64,000 nucleotides of DNA from sequence record OK040907. One strand, 5' to 3'. Of the stretch, positions 12,392-63,426 are shown piece by piece (within the stretch, counting starts at the first letter, position 1; each line of letters begins with the position of its first letter). The stretch comes from Enterobacteria phage Ac3. A program made the translations under genes and the position numbers. Below the pieces are notes generated by a model. It was given only the letters and a program-made list of their open reading frames with translations. It was not told the origin of the DNA and did no database searches.

Positions 12392-12670
12392 AAATGTAAT
12401 TTCTAACCAATCACCATCACGCTGATCACTATTGACTTTAAAATTAAATCCTTCTTTTCTCAGCCAATCACCAATTTCTTCAGTAATCAATTTATCACGA
12501 GCAGTACAATAATAACTAAAATATGTTTTACCTTGTTCAGCTGCTTTATTAGCAAGTTCTGAAAAATCTTTAATAAAACACTCTAGCTTAAACTGTTTAC
12601 TTTTTAATGCTTTTTCACGTAATTGATTAGCAAAAGATTCATTTTCATAAAGATTACACAGTGCCGTTTT
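12392..12670 (-). pseudogene. 93-codon open frame with protein-like translation but no ATG/GTG/TTG start; possible N-terminally truncated 24.2-like gene
   Basis: Manual translation ends ...RDGDWLEITF* 12 nt before rnlB start; frame opens exactly where the GC-rich block ends. Confidence 0.35.
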
Positions 12671-12869
12671 TCACCTTTTTGTTGATGTGACGTTTGCGGT
12701 AAACCACTTTTTCGCGGGTTTCGAACTTGTTTTTAGCGGTCATGGCACGTGCCCACAGAACGGCAACTTCTTTGGCCTGCAGGTTCAGTTCACGAGCAAT
12801 TTCGATGAAGCTTTTACCGGATTCGTGCAGGGTGAACACTACAACCTCGGTGCGCATAATCAATCTCAT
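12654..12869 (-). CDS. Small protein with helix-turn-helix-like segment; GC3-rich codon usage
   Basis: 71 aa ORF (67 aa from second ATG at 12857); codons ctg/cgt/acc/gaa dominate, unlike neighbours. Confidence 0.5.
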   Translation of the reverse strand: MRLIMRTEVVVFTLHESGKSFIEIARELNLQAKEVAVLWARAMTAKNKFETREKVVYRKRHINKKVKNGTV

Positions 12870-18674: not shown

Positions 18675-18700
18675 ATTTAGCTCCTTTATTTATCATATCT

Positions 18701-25284: not shown

Positions 25285-25315
25285 TTTGTGTTCCTCATGT
25301 TATGTCAGTAAGACT

Positions 25316-25345
25316 ACTATAACACAACATGAGGGACTTGTAAAC
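25316..25345 (-). promoter_or_regulatory. Early promoter: -35 GTTTAC, 18-nt spacer, -10 TATAGT
   Basis: Minus-strand GTTTAC at 25340-25345 and TATAGT at 25316-25321; part of the 54-bp repeat. Confidence 0.55.
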
Positions 25346-27405: not shown

Positions 27406-29502
27406 TTATCCTTGAACGAACTTGTAAGGCATGTTTGTAATATCTATGCAAGACGCAATAATTCCAAGAGATGATTCTACTTTCTGTTTAACGTTTGATG
27501 AAACAAATGATGCAAAGTCAACTCTGTCTTCTATTTCAGTATCACCTGTCATTGCAACTACTTCACCGGTTTCCATTAAATGGTCTCCGTCATAGATTAC
27601 CGATTCGGTGAGCTCTTCCGTGGTCATAACTTCAGCTTGAATGAGTTTTGTATTATTAGATGTTGTTCCGTCATTATTAGAAGCATCAGTTATTTTATTA
27701 ACTTTGACCATCAATCCACGCGGTAGAATAACTTCAGCTTCTGTTGCTATTCCGAGACTTCCTGGATATACAACATTAACTTTATGAGCTCCATCAATTG
27801 CCCATCCTATTTGAACTTTAACGTATTCAGGATTTTCTTTATACGCTCTTATTTCGTTTGGATTAATAGTTATTCCTTCTTCATTTTTATCAACTGTTAA
27901 TTCATTGCGAGCTTCTGGTTCTAAAAGACCAATACCAGCATGTGTGATTCCAAAACGTCCAAAAATGATAGGAGTTAAAGAAGTAGATACAAAATTTCTG
28001 AAGTAGAACACTTTATTTTTAACTAACGCTTCATATATAGGAGCAGTCATACTTTGAGCACGATAAACTGTAATGCCTTCTGGTATACGGTCACCATTTT
28101 CAAAAGCTGAATCTAAGTTATTTATAGCAGATTCAATTTCTTTTTCACTCATTACATCATATCGTTCTGGATTGTAACGACCTAAAAGAAGATTATTGAT
28201 GTCAGTATATCCTGAACCACAATATTCTCTAATGCCACGCTTTTGTGATGGAGTATATTTAGAACCATCGCGGGCAATAGTAATATCAATCATTGGACCA
28301 GCACCAATTCCAGAAAAACTGTAAATCATTCGTTTGAGGAATTTAGTTTTTGCTGCGTTCCAGGAATTTTTAGTTATTTCTTCCCAGACTTCATCTGGTT
28401 GTCCTTTACGATTTTTATTATGATTAGCAAGCCATTTATCTTTATAATCTTCAAAGAATTGATTTACAGCTGCTGCGTATTTCTCTAAACATTTTATTGA
28501 AGTAGTTGGTTCATTTTTAATTGCATTAAAAATTACTTCTTTAATTTTTTCTGAAACTTCACCGACTTGACTCATTGGAAAGAATTTATAATCATAGTGA
28601 AGTTCATCTGCCGTTCCTTCAGCAATAATTTTTGCTGCCTTTGTTTTAGAAGCTAATGAATTAATTCCAATTTTCATTTCTTCTGCTTCGGGAATTAAAG
28701 GTGCAGTAGCTGGTTTATTAAAATTAGCTGCTGTAGATTCATACTTCTGGAATAATTCACTTTCAAATCTAGAAGATTCCAATGACTGACTTTGTGCAAT
28801 TGCTCTACGGGAAATTTTAACTTTAACGATTACGGCTTGGTCAGAACGTTTATCATTTTCTTGTGCAATAGATGCAGCAATTGCCTCATTTTTGGTTACT
28901 TGAGCTCCAGTATCTTTATTGATATAAACATCACCGACCTTCGATTCAACTTTAGTAAAGAGCTCGGTGCTAATTTCTGGAACTCCTGGAATGTCTTCTA
29001 GTGATACATTTTTACGATGTATAAGAATATATGCATACTTTTTATCGTAATCCCAGAGTTCCTTAAGAAGGACGTATCTGCCACCTGAACGACTGCGGAT
29101 GAGTCTATCAGCAATAAGTTGAATTTGTCGAGCTTGACCTGCGGTTTTAGACTTAAGAATACGAAGCATGCAGGCATCAATTTTATATTGACGCATTGTT
29201 TGCATTGCAACAGTAAAAACTGAATTGATATAATTAATCGGGCTTGGACCAAGACCTTTTAATTTAGCAATTGAACCTTTAGCAGTTAATGTAAAAGGAA
29301 CAATATGCATCATTTTATCGCCCATCTTTAAATCACGATTAGTATCACCTCCAGATGTATAGGTACATAAACGAAAGCCTGGTTGTTCAATTGCATCATC
29401 AACATGAACTGAAAAAATTTGTGGTATTTTCTTCTTTGGATTTAAGTTTGTAATCGGAAGAGTAGTATCTTCGTCAAATAATTCTGTAATGAGTTCCATC
29501 AT
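27406..29502 (-). CDS. alt: Alt ADP-ribosyltransferase (injected with DNA, modifies host RNA polymerase)
   Basis: 698 aa (697 from second Met); matches recalled T4 Alt N-terminus; ART motifs YRAQ, FVSTS, EAEVILPRG. Confidence 0.9.
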   Translation of the reverse strand: MMELITELFDEDTTLPITNLNPKKKIPQIFSVHVDDAIEQPGFRLCTYTSGGDTNRDLKMGDKMMHIVPFTLTAKGSIAKLKGLGPSPINYINSVFTVAMQTMRQYKIDACMLRILKSKTAGQARQIQLIADRLIRSRSGGRYVLLKELWDYDKKYAYILIHRKNVSLEDIPGVPEISTELFTKVESKVGDVYINKDTGAQVTKNEAIAASIAQENDKRSDQAVIVKVKISRRAIAQSQSLESSRFESELFQKYESTAANFNKPATAPLIPEAEEMKIGINSLASKTKAAKIIAEGTADELHYDYKFFPMSQVGEVSEKIKEVIFNAIKNEPTTSIKCLEKYAAAVNQFFEDYKDKWLANHNKNRKGQPDEVWEEITKNSWNAAKTKFLKRMIYSFSGIGAGPMIDITIARDGSKYTPSQKRGIREYCGSGYTDINNLLLGRYNPERYDVMSEKEIESAINNLDSAFENGDRIPEGITVYRAQSMTAPIYEALVKNKVFYFRNFVSTSLTPIIFGRFGITHAGIGLLEPEARNELTVDKNEEGITINPNEIRAYKENPEYVKVQIGWAIDGAHKVNVVYPGSLGIATEAEVILPRGLMVKVNKITDASNNDGTTSNNTKLIQAEVMTTEELTESVIYDGDHLMETGEVVAMTGDTEIEDRVDFASFVSSNVKQKVESSLGIIASCIDITNMPYKFVQG

Positions 29503-37800: not shown

Positions 37801-39190
<1,390 letters not shown>

Positions 39191-39194
<4 letters not shown>

Positions 39195-40564: not shown

Positions 40565-40592
40565 AAAGTCCTCATGTTATGTCAGTAAGACT

Positions 40593-40622
40593 ACTATAAC
40601 ACAACATGAGGGACTTGTAAAC
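40593..40622 (-). promoter_or_regulatory. Early promoter: GTTTAC, 18-nt spacer, TATAGT (upstream of alc)
   Basis: Minus-strand GTTTAC at 40617-40622 and TATAGT at 40593-40598; part of the 54-bp repeat. Confidence 0.55.
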
Positions 40623-48944: not shown

Positions 48945-49184
48945 TTAAGCTTTCTTGGCAACTTTCCAGTCAGCTTTGAACTGATCGACGTCGCTGTGAT
49001 GGATCCAGAAGCCGGAGCTGGAACCGTCTTCATAGAGTGGGCAACCGTCACATTCATCTTCCCAACCCATATCACGCAGGAGATGTTCTGCCTTTTCGAT
49101 CAGCTCGGAATCTTTACCAATGATGTTGAAGTACCATTTGCCGCGTACTTCAGAGTCTTTAATGGACTGACGCTGCAGACGCAT
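48945..49184 (-). CDS. Small Cys-containing protein with GC3-rich codon usage
   Basis: 79 aa from MRLQRQ with gaggag RBS and own early promoter; the 109-aa track ORF starts upstream. Confidence 0.55.
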   Translation of the reverse strand: MRLQRQSIKDSEVRGKWYFNIIGKDSELIEKAEHLLRDMGWEDECDGCPLYEDGSSSGFWIHHSDVDQFKADWKVAKKA

Positions 49185-49210
49185 TTTATTCTCCTCAAGT
49201 TGATAGGGTA

Positions 49211-49240
49211 ATAGTATCACACTACTACCCTGTTGTAAAC
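49211..49240 (-). promoter_or_regulatory. Early promoter: GTTTAC, spacer, TACTAT
   Basis: Minus-strand GTTTAC at 49235-49240 and TACTAT at 49211-49216. Confidence 0.5.
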
Positions 49241-49504: not shown

Positions 49505-49891
49505 TTAGGCCTTAAAAGTTTTTCGCAAAAGTTCAATGATTTCATCTACATTGTTTTCGTCAACAATGCAGTGAATTTTTGTTACGCCAGAAACTATACC
49601 TTCATTAGCGGATTGAGGCTTTTCTAAAGTTACCTCAGTAAAGTATTTGAATTCTTCAGAGTAAATCTCAAAATACGTCTCAAGTGGGCCACCCGCCATG
49701 TATTCAGTACCATCTTCCATAGTTACACGTACCACACATTCACCAGCACAATCATCACTTTCCATTTCATCTACAACAAAACTAGGTCCGTGCTTCTCTA
49801 TTAAATTTAGCATCATTACATTGCAACGGCACTCGTTAGCAAAGTCATTTTTAAATAAAGGGTTAATGATATAAGTTTTTCCAACTTCCAC
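49505..49891 (-). CDS. Hypothetical protein
   Basis: 128 aa ORF. Confidence 0.55.
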   Translation of the reverse strand: MEVGKTYIINPLFKNDFANECRCNVMMLNLIEKHGPSFVVDEMESDDCAGECVVRVTMEDGTEYMAGGPLETYFEIYSEEFKYFTEVTLEKPQSANEGIVSGVTKIHCIVDENNVDEIIELLRKTFKA

Positions 49892-49937
49892 TTTGATTTC
49901 CTCATTTTAACGGGGCTATCAAATAGCCCCTTGATAA

Positions 49938-50168
49938 TTACTGTTCGATGAGACCCATGTAGAATTCCGCATCTTCGGAGTCCATACCGTCGCAGTATTC
50001 GTTAGCCATGAAGCGGGTCAGGTCCTCCAGTGGACCCTCAATAACAATGCTAAAGTTACAATAGTTCGGGTCATCATGGATGGAAGTAATAGACAGCTCC
50101 GGGTAACGGTTGCGGATAATTTCCTCGATGTATTCGAAATCAACGATGTCGATGTCTACTTTAGCCAT
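49938..50168 (-). CDS. Small acidic protein with GC3-rich codon usage
   Basis: 76 aa from MAKVDID with aggaaa RBS and own early promoter. Confidence 0.55.
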
Positions 50169-50211
50169 ATTATTTTCCTCTTTGATCATCAGCAGTATTG
50201 CCGATAGTTGT

Positions 50212-50241
50212 ATAGTACCATGGAAGGACAAGGATGTAAAC
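50212..50241 (-). promoter_or_regulatory. Early promoter: GTTTAC, 18-nt spacer, TACTAT
   Basis: Minus-strand GTTTAC at 50236-50241 and TACTAT at 50212-50217. Confidence 0.5.
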
Positions 50242-50314
50242 AGTTTTGTGAAAAAATTTTTGAAATAAAAAAGGGGACCTCTAGGGTCCCCAATTAATTA
50301 GTAATTATAATCTA

Positions 50315-51223
50315 TTACAGGTCGTTCAGGAGGTCATCCAGGTCGGTATCGTCGGCGCTGGAAGAGGAGCCGCTAGAGGAAGACATGAAGTCATCTTCGG
50401 TTTTAGTGTTAAAATCGTCAACGTTAAAGGCGTCCAGGTCATCCGCTACCTTATCGGCTTTCTTAGCCGCAGTAGCCGCAGCACCGCCCATCACAGCAGT
50501 GCCCATAACCTGACCGAACTTGGTGTTGAGTTCCTCAAAAGATTTAAATTTATCTTTGGAGGTCATCTCAGACAGATCTACCATCTGCTCAAACAGTTCT
50601 TTTTGGAAAGATTCGTCATCGATGTTCGGGATAGCAGACTGGTTCAGAAATTTGCTCTCGTCGTAATTGGAGAAACCAGAAACCTGTTTAACCTTCAGAA
50701 CGAAGTTGGCACCCTCCCACGGGCAGGTGACGTCGACCGGGGTTTCACCCATCTCCACGTCCACCGCAATCATAGCGTTAATTTTATCCCAGATTTTCTT
50801 ACCAAAGCGGTATTTGAAAACCTTACCCTCGTTTTCTGGCGCAGCTGGATCCTTTACAACCAGGATGTTAGCCCAGTAAGAGGTTTTACGTTTCACCAGG
50901 CCGTATTCTTTATTGTCGGTATTATACAGATCGTTTTTGGAAATGTACTGACACACCGGGCAAGAGTCGTAGTCGCCGTGGGTGGAAGAACAGTTTTCGA
51001 TGTACCATTTGCCGTTTTTCTTAAAACCGTGGTTCACCAGGATAGCGAACGGAGCCTGTTCGTCATTTTTGCTCGGCAGGAAGCGGATCACCGCCTGACC
51101 GTTGCCCGCGTTGTCCAGTTTCAGTTTCCATTCGCCTTTGTCCTCAGAGCTGAAGCCACCTTTGTTGCCCGCCAGCTTGGCCATCTGCGCAGCCAGTTCT
51201 GCCGTGCTCTTACGCTTGAACAT
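50315..51223 (-). CDS. 32: Single-stranded DNA-binding protein
   Basis: 302 aa; zinc ligands H/C/C/C in HGF...ENC...DSCPVC; acidic C-terminus; operator directly upstream. Confidence 0.95.
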
Positions 51224-58644: not shown

Positions 58645-59301
58645 ATGGCTGATTTAAAAGTAGGTTCAACAACTGGAGGCTCTGTCATTTGGCATCAAGG
58701 AAATTTTCCATTGAATCCAGCCGGTGACGATGTACTCTACAAATCATTTAAAATATATTCAGAATATAATAAACCACAAGCAACTGATAACGATTTCGTT
58801 TCTAAAGCTAATGGTGGTACTTATTTAAATAAAGTAATTTTTAATAAAGGAATGACTGTTCCTGGTGCTGGGTCAGGTGACAACGGTATTTTTGCCGGTC
58901 CTGGTGATAATGCCACATATGATACTACAAATATGGATATTGTTTCATGGTATGGTATCGGCTTTAAATCATCACAAGGGGCAGCAGGTAGAACTGTAGT
59001 AATTAACACACGAAACGGAGATATTAGCTCAAAGGGTGTAATTGAAGCATCACAAATACGCGCAACTTCGTTATCACCAGTAAATAATTATGACCTTACG
59101 AGAAAAGATTATGTTGATGGGGCAATAAATATTGTTACAACAAATGCAAACTCTAGAGTATTACGCTCTGGAGACACTATGACAGGAAATTTAACTGCGC
59201 CAAACCTTTTTTCACAGAATCCTGCATCTCAACCCTCGCATGTTCCGCGATTTGACCAAATCGTAATTAAGGATTCTGTTCAAGATTTCGGCTATTATTA
59301 A
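58645..59301 (+). CDS. 36: Long tail fibre distal connector
   Basis: 218 aa; GDTMTG fibre motif. Confidence 0.9.
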   Translation: MADLKVGSTTGGSVIWHQGNFPLNPAGDDVLYKSFKIYSEYNKPQATDNDFVSKANGGTYLNKVIFNKGMTVPGAGSGDNGIFAGPGDNATYDTTNMDIVSWYGIGFKSSQGAAGRTVVINTRNGDISSKGVIEASQIRATSLSPVNNYDLTRKDYVDGAINIVTTNANSRVLRSGDTMTGNLTAPNLFSQNPASQPSHVPRFDQIVIKDSVQDFGYY

Positions 59302-59309
59302 GAGGACTT

Positions 59310-62300
59310 ATGGCTACTTTAAAACAAATACAATTTAAAAGAAGCAAAACCGCAGGAGCACGTCCTGCCGCTTCAGTATTAGCCGAAGGTGAATTGGCTA
59401 TAAACTTAAAAGACCGTGTACTTTTTACTAAAGATGACCAAGGAAATATTATTGATCTGGGTTTTGCTAAGGGCGGTAGTATTGACGGGAATGTTATTCA
59501 TATAGGAAACTATAACCAAACTGGTGATTATACTTTAAATGGCGCATTAACTCAGACAGGTAATTTTAATTTAACTGGTATTGCTCGAGTAACTCGCGAT
59601 ATTATTGCCGCTGGGCAGATTATGACTGAAGGCGGAGAACTTATTACAAAAAGTTCAGGTACAGCGCATGTTCGTTTTTTCGATGGCAATAGTCGCGAAC
59701 GCGGAATCATTTATGCCCCGGCTAATGATGGTTTAACTACACAAGTACTTAATATCAGGGTTCAAGACTATGCCGCTGGTAGCGAAACGACTTATCGATT
59801 TTCAGGCAGTGGCCTATTTACTTCACCTGAAGTATCAGCATGGAAATCTATTTCGTCTCCACAAATTCTGACCGATAAAGTTATTACAAATGGGAAGAAG
59901 ACAGGCGATTATGATATCTATTCATTATCAAATAACACTCCAATGGCAGAAGGCGAAACGGCTATTAACCACCTCCGTGTTATGCGAAATGCTGTAGGAG
60001 CAGGTATTTTCCACGAAGTTAATGTTAATGACGGAATAACCTGGTATTCCGGACATGGCTTAGACACTTATCTTTGGTCGTTTAACTGGGCCGGTGGATT
60101 GAAAGCTGGTCATTCTATTGCTGTGGCCTTCCTCACGGTTCTAAAATTATTCAGAAATGGGCACGGCTTCTATTGCTTTAGGAGAGTAGATGATACCGGA
60201 TTTAAATGGCATCAGGATGGATATTATTTCAGCGTTAATAATGGAACAAAAACATTTTTATTTAGTCCTAGTGAAACAACTAGCCTAAGAAAATTTGTAG
60301 CTGGATATTCTACTAACGGAACCGATTTAACGACTCCTCCAACTGAAAACTATGCTCTTGCTACTGTCGTGACATATCACGATAATAACGCGTTTGGAGA
60401 TGGTCAGACTCTTTTAGGATATTATCAAGGCGGTAATTATCATCACTATTTCCGCGGTAAAGGTACTACAAACATTAATACTCACGGCGGTTTGTTAGTT
60501 ATTACTCCCGGTAATGTAGATGTGGTCGGCGGCATGGTTACCATTGATGGTAAAAATTATGCTTCTAGTGTGCTTTTTAAAGGAAATACTACAGGATATA
60601 GTTCAGTTGATAATATAGAGCTCAAAGTTTGGGGTGACACTTTTAATACAGTAGGTGGTACTCGTAAAAACGTAATGGAAACATCTGATGCTACTGGCTG
60701 GATGCATTATATTCAACGAACTACAGCAGGTAAAGTTGAGTCCTATTTAAATGGTACCATGAATGTAAATGAAAGCATCAACGTCAGTAAAGAAGTTAAC
60801 GCCTCTGGCACTATTGCTAGTAATGCTGTCAATGCGCTTCGCATTTGGAATGCAGATTATGGAGCTATTTTTAGACGTTCAGAAGGAAGTCTTCATATTA
60901 TTCCAACTGCTTATGGTGAAGGCAAAAATGGTGATATCGGTCCACTTCGCCCGTTTAGTATGGCTTTAGATACCGGTAAAGTTACTATTCCAGATTTACA
61001 ATCAAGTTACAATACGTTCGCTGCGAACGGCTATATTAAATTTGTTGGTCATGGAGCGGGTGCCGGCGGTTATGACATTCAATATGCTCAAGCGGCTCCT
61101 ATTTTCCAGGAAATTGATGGATGCTGTAAGCAAATATTTATCCCTATTGTTAAACAGAAGTTTTTAAATGGTAAAGCCGTTTGGTCTTTAGGTACTGAAA
61201 TTAATTCTGGTACATTTGTTTTACATCATCTGAAAGAAGATGGACACAAGGTCATACATCAAGATTTAATGCTGACGGTACAGTTAATTTCCCTGATAAC
61301 GTTCAAGTCGGTGGTGGTGAAGCTACTATTGCTCGTAATGGTAATATTTTCTCGGATATTTGGAAACTGTTTACTTCTGCTGGAGACACTACAAATATTC
61401 GGTGATGCAATAGCTACTCGTGTTGCTAAAGAAGGTGATACGATGACCGGTAGGTTGACTTTATCAGCTGGAAATGATGCACTTGTTTTAACTGCAGGCG
61501 TGGGTGCTTCATCACACATCCGTAGTGATGTAGGTGGTATAGGTAACTGGTATATAGGCAAAGGCGGCGGCGACAATGGTCTAGGTTTTTACAGTTACAT
61601 TACACAAGGCGGTGTATACATAACAAATAACGGCGAAATAGCGCTTTCTCCTCAAGGTCAAGGAACATTTAATTTTAATAGGGATCGCCTTTATATAAAT
61701 GCTAGTCAATGGGTTGCACATAAATCTGGCGCTTGGGGTGACCAATGGGGCTTAGAAGCTCCTGTATTTGTGGATTTTGGTAGTGTCGGTAATGATAGTT
61801 ATTATCCTATTATTAAAGGAAAATCTGTTATTACGAATGAAGGATACATATCTGGCGTTGATTTTGGTATGCGTCGCATTACTAATACATGGGCACAAGG
61901 TATTATTCGTGTAGGTAACCAGGAAAACGGTTCTGACCCACAAGCTATCTATGAATTCCACCACAATGGAGTTATGTATGTTCCTAACATGGTTAAAACC
62001 GGAGCAAGATTATCGGCTGGCGGTGGTGACCCGGTGTGGACTGGACCATGTCTTGTTATTGGTGATAATGTATCCGGATTAGTTCATGGTGGTGATGGGC
62101 GAATTAACATGGTTGCAAATGGAGCGCATATTGCTTCGTGGTCTTCATCTTATCATTCTCATCCTGGCCTTTGGGATTCAAACGGTGCTTTGTGGACGGA
62201 AGTTGGCAAAGCAGTTATTTCTCATGGTCATTTAGTTCAGGCGAATGACAACTATTCAACATATGTCCGCGATGTTTATGTCCGCTCTGATATTCGTGTT

Positions 62301-62621
62301 AAAAAGAACCTCGTTAAATTTGAAAATGCTTCTGAGAAGCTTTCTAAAATTAACGGTTACACTTATATGCAGAAACGTGGAACAGATGAAGAAGGTAATC
62401 AGAAATGGGAACCTAACGCAGGTTTGATAGCTCAAGAAGTTCAAGATATTTTACCAGAATTCGTTGAAGGTGACCCGGATGGTGAAGCTTTACTTCGTTT
62501 GAACTATAACGGTGTAATTGGTTTAAATACAGCTGCAATCAATGAGCATACTGCAGAAATTGCAGAACTTAAGTCAGAGATTGAAGAGCTTAAAAAATTA
62601 GTTAAATCATTGTTAAAATAA
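59310..62621 (+). CDS. 37: Long tail fibre distal subunit with C-terminal intramolecular chaperone-like domain; internal out-of-frame segment
   Basis: 1103 aa; conserved N-terminus [13 protein letters not shown]; C-terminal coiled coil; about 52 codons at 61245-61401 read in a shifted frame. Confidence 0.88.
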
Positions 62622-62626
62622 TAAGA

Positions 62627-62640
62627 GGGGCTTCGGCCCC
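62627..62640 (+). terminator. Hairpin ggggcttcggcccc after gene 37
   Basis: Perfect GC stem with UUCG loop. Confidence 0.5.
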
Positions 62641-62652
62641 TTGGAGGTTTAT

Positions 62653-63426
62653 ATGGCAGTTGAAGGACCGTGGGTAGGATGGTCTGCGAGGGTACAGACT
62701 GGAGATCCTTGGATGGGTGGTGCCGCGCAGAGATTGAGAATGGGAATTCCGTTTTGGATGAGTAATATGATAGGTCGATCTGTTGAAATAATTCACACGC
62801 TTGGAGCAGACCATAACTTCAATGGTCAATGGTTCCGAGATAGATGTTTTGAGGCAGGTAGTACACCTATAGTGTTTAATATCACTGGAGATTTAGTATC
62901 ATATTCTAAAGATGTTCCTTTATTCTTCATGTACGGAGATACACCGAATGAATATGTTCAGTTGAATATACACGGCGTAGCGATGTATGGCCGTGGCGGT
63001 AATGGCGGTAGCAATAGTCCTGGTTCAGCTGGAGGTCATTGTATTCAAAACGATATTGGTGGGAGACTAAGAATTAATAATGGCGGAGCTATTGCAGGCG
63101 GTGGCGGCGGTGGCGGTGGCGGTAACAGGGGTCGACTAGTATTTGGTGGTGGCGGTGGTCGCCCATTCGGTAGTGGCGGGTCTTCCCTCTCTCACATGAG
63201 TGCTGGTGCAACCGCCGGCACCATTTACGCTCCGGGTGCAGGATCTGTCGGTGAGGGGTCTCTTAGTGCATATACAGGCGGGTCTGGTGGTGAAGTTGGC
63301 TCCGCAGGAGGTAGAAATACTCACGGTACCGGTACAGAATATGACGGCGGAGCTGCTGGTTATGCTGTTATAGGGTCGTCTCCAACGTGGATAAATGTTG
63401 GAGCAATATATGGTCCAAGAGTATAA
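62653..63426 (+). CDS. 38: T2-type receptor-recognising adhesin with glycine-rich motifs
   Basis: 257 aa from MAVEGPW with ggagg RBS; poly-Gly stretches; conserved [22 protein letters not shown]. Confidence 0.85.

Follow-up and report, generated by a model that had tools for sequence, protein, structure and literature searches.

The gene frd.3 is a long-known and uncharacterised early gene of the T-even phages, and the T4 and RB51 annotations both place it between gene 32 and frd.2. UniProt lists its product as 'Uncharacterized 8.8 kDa protein in frd-Gp32 intergenic region', and the literature on frd.3 that we found consists of a pan-genome mention and a preprint on NAD capping, which reports frd.3 RNA as one of the NAD-capped RNAs of highest abundance in T4 (bioRxiv 10.1101/2024.04.04.588121). 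In the reference genomes the gene has AT-rich, phage-type codon usage; the fraction of G or C at third codon positions (GC3) is 0.15–0.32 in 19 natural alleles and 0.25 in that of RB51. Natural alleles that differ in DNA sequence differ in protein sequence as well: compared with RB51, the T4 allele is 92% identical in nucleotide sequence and has 9 amino acid changes, PTE-Eco15 is 82% identical with 16 changes, ECO07P3 80% with 17 and WG01 74% with 24, and in such alleles 55–64% of the changed codons alter the amino acid.

The DNA analysed here is a stretch of 64,000 nucleotides from Enterobacteria phage Ac3 (record OK040907), called the window below; all coordinates are positions in it. Its minus strand carries, at 49938..50168, an open reading frame of 76 codons plus a TAA stop (ATG at 50168–50166, TAA at 49940–49938) that encodes an acidic protein. 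That protein matches the Pfam family PF05798 (Phage_FRD3) with an E value of 6.3e-38 and 129.6 bits against a cut-off of 28.1, over its full length (residues 1–76 on model positions 1–75 of 75), and it also matches PHROG 1764, whose function is unassigned. It is 100% identical to the RB51 frd.3 protein and agrees with T4 frd.3 at 66 of 75 aligned residues. PF05798 is present in all 37 of its database relatives, of which the named ones are T4-like phages or bacterial assemblies. In the assembly collection the exact 76 amino acid protein is encoded in 260 blocks, and in ten of the ten that are listed its gene lies between those for gp32 and FRD2, the same position as in the RB51 and T4 annotations. 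The surrounding region corresponds to the T-even td-frd-32-59-33-dsbA-rnh block, and its best public match is RB51 or RB68 (94.2% over 5 kb). Because of the full-length PF05798 match, the PHROG 1764 match and the gene order relative to gene 32 and frd.2, the reading frame is identified by homology as the early gene frd.3, native to an RB51-like T-even phage (Tequatrovirus) and in its normal location; the RB51 annotation likewise identifies the 79 amino acid reading frame nearby as frd.1.

The AlphaFold model of the frd.3 protein is a confident one (pLDDT 93, pTM 0.81) and has the order beta-alpha-beta-beta-alpha-alpha, from which the protein appears to be a small, acidic, ferredoxin-like domain. 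A viral structure library matched it only to FRD3 relatives, themselves uncharacterised, in T4-like phages of Erwinia, Serratia and Klebsiella, and no catalytic family match was found for it. Our best guess, a tentative one, is that it may be non-enzymatic and, early in infection, bind or modulate a partner from the host or the phage.

The promoter and terminator context of frd.3 is standard for this region, and every element that the first-pass annotation had described here, a terminator hairpin, an early-type GTTTAC/TACTAT promoter, a ribosome-binding site and the reading frame itself, is present. A terminator scan places the gene 32 intrinsic terminator at 50263..50291 on the minus strand, where a hairpin, GGGGACCCTAGAGGTCCCC, is followed by a TTTTTT run, with scan coordinates of 50291..50273; it is unchanged relative to RB51, and related records, wV7 and fPS-90 for example, carry a terminator annotation. 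Directly after the hairpin and T run, a consensus scan finds a sigma-70 or T4 early-type promoter at 50212..50240 (minus strand), consisting of (G)TTTACA, a 17 nt spacer and TACTAT with a TG extended -10. The arrangement is that of T4 early promoters and of the T4-type gene 32 terminator region, related records annotate both terminator and promoter here, and the promoter region shows no difference from RB51. The same pair of hexamers lies upstream of frd.1 (49239..49211). Simple promoter scanning taken alone is not above chance in this region (7 found against 5.0 +/- 2.2 expected); across ten independent natural contigs, however, the -35 GTTTACA block and the -10 TGGTACTATAC block are both preserved and the intervening spacer is variable, being replaced in two, and this supports the frd.3 promoter as a real one. 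The abundance of NAD-capped frd.3 RNA in the T4 preprint also fits a strong promoter dedicated to the gene. Conservation and the published T4 RNA data together indicate that frd.3 is probably a separate transcription unit, which follows the gene 32 terminator and has a sigma-70 early promoter to itself. The Shine-Dalgarno sequence AGAGGAA (50175..50181, minus strand), read from the sequence 6 nt 5' of the ATG, is the same as in RB51 and is kept in the natural contigs.

A GC-rich hairpin, GGGGCTATTTGATAGCCCC, also read from the sequence, lies between frd.3 and frd.2 at 49912..49930 on the minus strand and is the same in RB51. It has no T run 3' of it on the minus (coding) strand, and its role might lie in RNA stability or processing and not in termination. 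In early mRNAs, the T4 endoribonuclease RegB cuts at the motif GGAG. We note that the frd.1 ribosome-binding site (49185–49200, minus strand) reads GAGGAG and contains this motif, and that the frd.3 site AGAGGAA does not.

Aligned with RB51 (FJ839693.1, compared from record position 96001 across the window), the window agrees with RB51 at every base of some 59 kb, save for three single-base differences, a tail-fibre block and five coding sequences. The td, frd, 59, 33, dsbA and rnh genes and the unnamed reading frames have no differences at all, and neither does the major capsid gene 23. The single-base differences are a 1-bp indel at 18699, which sits between genes 26 and 51, and substitutions at 28799, inside the alt gene region, and at 49699, in frd.2, where it changes one residue. 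BLAST comparison with RB51 also gives cross-matches that reveal an exact 54-bp repeat at 25292–25345 and 40569–40622; by RB51 coordinates one copy is beside alt.-3/alt.-2 and the other is between alc and rnlA.

The tail-fibre block, 59090–63426 on the plus strand, contains the distal tail-fibre genes 36, 37 and 38. Its identity to RB51 is only about 89%, compared with 99.6% to the 1998 partial phage Ac3 record AF060870.1 (12 mismatches and 2 gaps in 4341 nt). On these alignments, a block of this type on an RB51-like backbone looks like an ordinary natural T-even mosaic, and it suggests that the parent was Ac3, or a phage very closely related to it, and had a backbone like that of RB51. No genome that joins an RB51 backbone to an Ac3-type distal tail fibre, and could directly show native alleles of the five genes in this setting, was found by searches with the exact gp38 protein or, in metagenome and genome contigs, with a gp38 47-mer; a gp37 45-mer matched one IMG/VR contig, which is only 79% identical.

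The five exceptional coding sequences are 24.3, a RB32ORF217c-type gene, frd.1, frd.3 and gene 32. As the first-pass annotation had seen, the small acidic reading frame beside gene 32 is rich in GC at third positions: the frd.3 GC3 is 0.60–0.61 compared with a median of 0.26 for the 101 window reading frames of at least 65 codons, which puts it among the five highest, and local GC content is 0.43–0.46 in the anomalous stretch versus about 0.30–0.38 in the adjoining native genes. The host-like character ascribed to its codons is likewise real, since they are the E. coli-preferred set, and frd.1 is indeed a compositional match. Gene 32 is equally anomalous (GC3 0.62), as are two distant genes of the window, and neither the former nor the latter had been flagged. 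What the window frd.3 lacks is the phage-type codon usage of the reference genomes, a feature of the DNA only that leaves its family membership unaffected. The possibility had been raised that this is simply the native frd.3-type gene, with the same composition in reference genomes; it is the native gene, but the reference genomes do not have such a composition, so the anomaly is real and is best explained by artificial codon optimisation.

The window frd.3 differs from that of RB51 at 51 nucleotides, which affect 46 of 77 codons and are all synonymous; the two are thus 77.6% identical in DNA with no amino acid changes. Ten natural contigs that encode the identical frd.3 protein are 0–7 nucleotides from RB51 and 51–52 from the window, with GC3 values of 0.21–0.29.

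The other four genes, all on the minus strand, are changed in the same way. The frd.1 coding sequence (48945..49184; 79 amino acids, Pfam DUF5417), which was the first GC3-rich reading frame of the first-pass annotation, has 54 nucleotide differences from RB51 in 44 of 80 codons and no amino acid change, so that its protein is 100% identical to RB51 frd.1; its stop is TAA in place of TGA and its GC3 is 0.54 versus 0.29. Gene 32 (50315..51223), which encodes the single-stranded DNA-binding protein, has 190 differences in 169 of 303 codons, again with no amino acid change, and a GC3 of 0.62 versus 0.29. The RB32ORF217c-type gene (38892..39194) encodes 100 amino acids that match PHROG 2364 and, weakly, GapR; 66 of its 101 codons are changed, none with an effect on the protein, and TGA has become TAA. 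It still overlaps the pseT start by one base after the recoding. Gene 24.3 (12654..12857; 67 amino acids, DUF2774) has 45 of 68 codons changed, no amino acid change and the same TGA to TAA replacement. Its 3'-end overlaps gene 24.2, and there the recoding has had a cost: alignment with RB51 shows that the former ATG of gene 24.2 (12665..12667, minus strand) is now ACG. The 92 amino acid gene 24.2 has lost its start codon in this way, a 33 amino acid reading frame with a TTG start is all that is left in frame, and the 24.3 changes would also alter four of the first five residues of the gene 24.2 protein. Together, the five genes differ from RB51 in 370 of 629 codons (59%) without a single amino acid change.

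The differences respect the coding boundaries closely. In all five genes they begin at codons 2–4 and end at or before the stop, and the intergenic DNA is all identical to that of RB51, including the frd.3 promoter, ribosome-binding site and terminator, the hairpin between frd.3 and frd.2 and the gene 32 leader. They track the annotated starts and not the longest reading frames, as the stretches that follow upstream in-frame ATGs of 24.3 and frd.3 are untouched. All three TGA stops have been replaced by TAA. Codon families are switched at 25 of 47 serines (AGY/TCN), 5 of 25 arginines and 11 of 41 leucines; a serine change from AGY to TCN passes in nature through non-synonymous intermediates. 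About 16 rare or disfavoured codons are absent from the recoded genes (GGA, GGG, ATA, CTA, CTT, TTA, TTG, AGA, AGG, CGA, CGG, AGT, TCA, TCG, ACA, CCC and CCT); the native alleles carry 74 of these, and average E. coli usage would by our estimate give about 62. The recoded codon frequencies fit a table of E. coli highly expressed genes best and the phage's own usage worst, and the native alleles give the reverse order; the E. coli tables behind both the fits and the expectation are approximate ones. Examples of the recoded frequencies are counts of 25:13 for ATC:ATT, 15:10 for CGT:CGC and 15:8:12:3 for GTT:GTA:GTG:GTC.

We consider that the window frd.3 is very probably a known gene that has been artificially codon-optimised, and that it was not acquired horizontally. 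More generally, the recoding of the five genes is very probably artificial, and a natural recoding is extremely improbable; the agency of a person or an algorithm is our inference from the pattern. In the process we envisage, five coding sequences would have been rewritten, from the second codon through the stop, in the codons of highly expressed E. coli genes with their proteins unchanged, in a deliberate procedure that was guided by the annotation and was applied either to a construct in the laboratory or to the sequence in silico. Of the two, an automated edit is the likelier, in view of the broken start of 24.2, boundaries that follow the annotation and the lack of any record. Three properties expected of a designed recoding are found, namely a protein equal to a natural allele, synonymous sites changed to near saturation and changes limited to annotated coding sequence, and so are the use of host-preferred codons only, the removal of rare codons and the normalised stops. 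A documented construct or design record is the one such property that did not turn up: papers and sequence records yielded no description of recoded T4-like genes, nor any published construct for the recoding seen in the window. The choice of these five genes, which has no obvious rationale, also counts against an artificial origin.

The recoded alleles themselves were not found elsewhere. Among 650 phage records with a homologue of frd.3 the best full-length match is 78.4%, and among 1492 phage records the best identity to the recoded gene 32 is 80.2%; no intermediates between native and recoded alleles occur in either set. An exact recoded 47-mer is absent from metagenome and genome contigs. 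It is absent from viral contigs as well, but there the native RB51 47-mer is missing too, which makes that negative uninformative. PLSDB contains no plasmid match to the recoded gene 32.

An assembly chimera, in which reads from codon-optimised expression plasmids of the five genes were merged with phage reads, would account for protein-identical, optimised alleles in an otherwise native genome. We nevertheless think it very unlikely. All ten boundaries are seamless at codon resolution, with no vector sequence, overlapping neighbours are joined in register, and no matching plasmid was found in PLSDB; an identity of 78% would, moreover, be expected to break an assembly graph rather than to merge with it.

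The first-pass annotation had read the composition of frd.3 and frd.1 as a possible property of abundant early proteins, and natural selection for translational efficiency could in principle have given gp32 and small early proteins host-optimal codons. The gp32 protein is very abundant, as is T4 frd.3 RNA, and the codon set matches that of highly expressed E. coli genes. All of the differences from RB51 are, however, synonymous and lie inside coding sequence, and frd.3 does not owe its GC3-rich, host-like composition to its biology. About 59 kb with three differences stands beside genes with 59% of their codons changed, a contrast in rate of more than 1000-fold; there are no amino acid changes in 370 changed codons, compared with 55–64% of changed codons between natural frd.3 alleles; the switches of serine codon family are massive; and neither the 650 nor the 1492 records contain an intermediate. 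Other highly expressed genes, such as that of the major capsid protein, gene 23, are the same as in RB51. The overlapping gene 24.2 has lost its start codon, and selection that spared 67 of 67 residues of 24.3 is not expected to sacrifice 24.2, whereas an algorithm that works one coding sequence at a time would. Natural codon adaptation was rejected on the rate contrast, the zero amino acid changes, the serine family switches and the lack of intermediates, and we give it hardly any probability.

Horizontal co-acquisition of frd.3 and frd.1, from the host or from a GC-richer donor whose codon usage was kept, is equally hard to credit. The two genes do have a GC3 of 0.54–0.61 against a background of 0.26, with E. 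coli-like codons, and the common origin proposed for their composition stands in so far as one cause explains both. That cause is not co-acquisition: both proteins are 100% identical to those of native RB51 frd.1 and frd.3, and the genes are in native order. The anomaly ends exactly at the coding boundaries with flanks that are 100% identical to RB51, codons that are rare in E. coli but expected in a genuine host gene are wholly absent, and three unlinked genes have the same pattern. The frd.3 family is confined to T4-like phages (its named relatives are T4-like phages or bacterial assemblies), and collections of phage, plasmid, genome and metagenome sequences yielded no donor. An origin of frd.3 in the host was rejected because its protein and flanks are those of RB51 and its family is phage-only.

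Finally, the alleles would be natural if a T-even lineage had swapped whole early coding sequences for protein-identical, host-optimised versions, through some RNA- or reverse-transcription-mediated process not known at present or under selection to escape a sequence-specific RNA- or DNA-targeting host defence, and to this we assign next to no probability.

If, as we believe, the five genes were artificially recoded, the window is not a purely natural sequence, and the recoding is a flag of its provenance and quality. Since the five genes are recoded, any inference drawn from their composition, whether to horizontal transfer, expression level or host adaptation, is an artefact; the warning covers frd.3, frd.1 (48945–49184), gene 32, gene 24.3 and the gene at 38892–39194. 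If a physical phage has this sequence, it would be an engineered construct with a gene 24.2 that lacks a functional start codon; in a living phage none of the five proteins would be altered by the recoding. Predicted mRNA structure around the start of the coding region is stronger in the recoded than in the native form for gene 32 (-10.1 vs -2.3 kcal/mol) and frd.1 (-10.0 vs -2.9 kcal/mol) and changes little for frd.3 (-7.1 vs -5.6 kcal/mol). Because of the additional structure predicted at the gene 32 and frd.1 starts, higher expression is not guaranteed and translation could fall.

As a gene, then, the window frd.3 is of low biological novelty. Like the frd.3 genes of T4 and RB51 it has the protein, gene position, terminator, promoter and ribosome-binding site of the family, and it differs from them in its DNA, at 51 of 231 positions relative to RB51, all synonymous, and in a GC3 of 0.61 versus the natural 0.15–0.32. 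In these respects its nearest counterparts are codon-optimised or recoded synthetic genes such as those of the recoded phage phiX174 (PMC7881332), with which it and the other four genes share an unchanged protein, saturating synonymous changes, host-preferred codons, TAA stops, edits that stay within coding sequence and switched codon families. The window is distinguished from such synthetic genes by the setting of its recoding, which affects five scattered genes in an otherwise native 64-kb segment and damages an overlapping gene.
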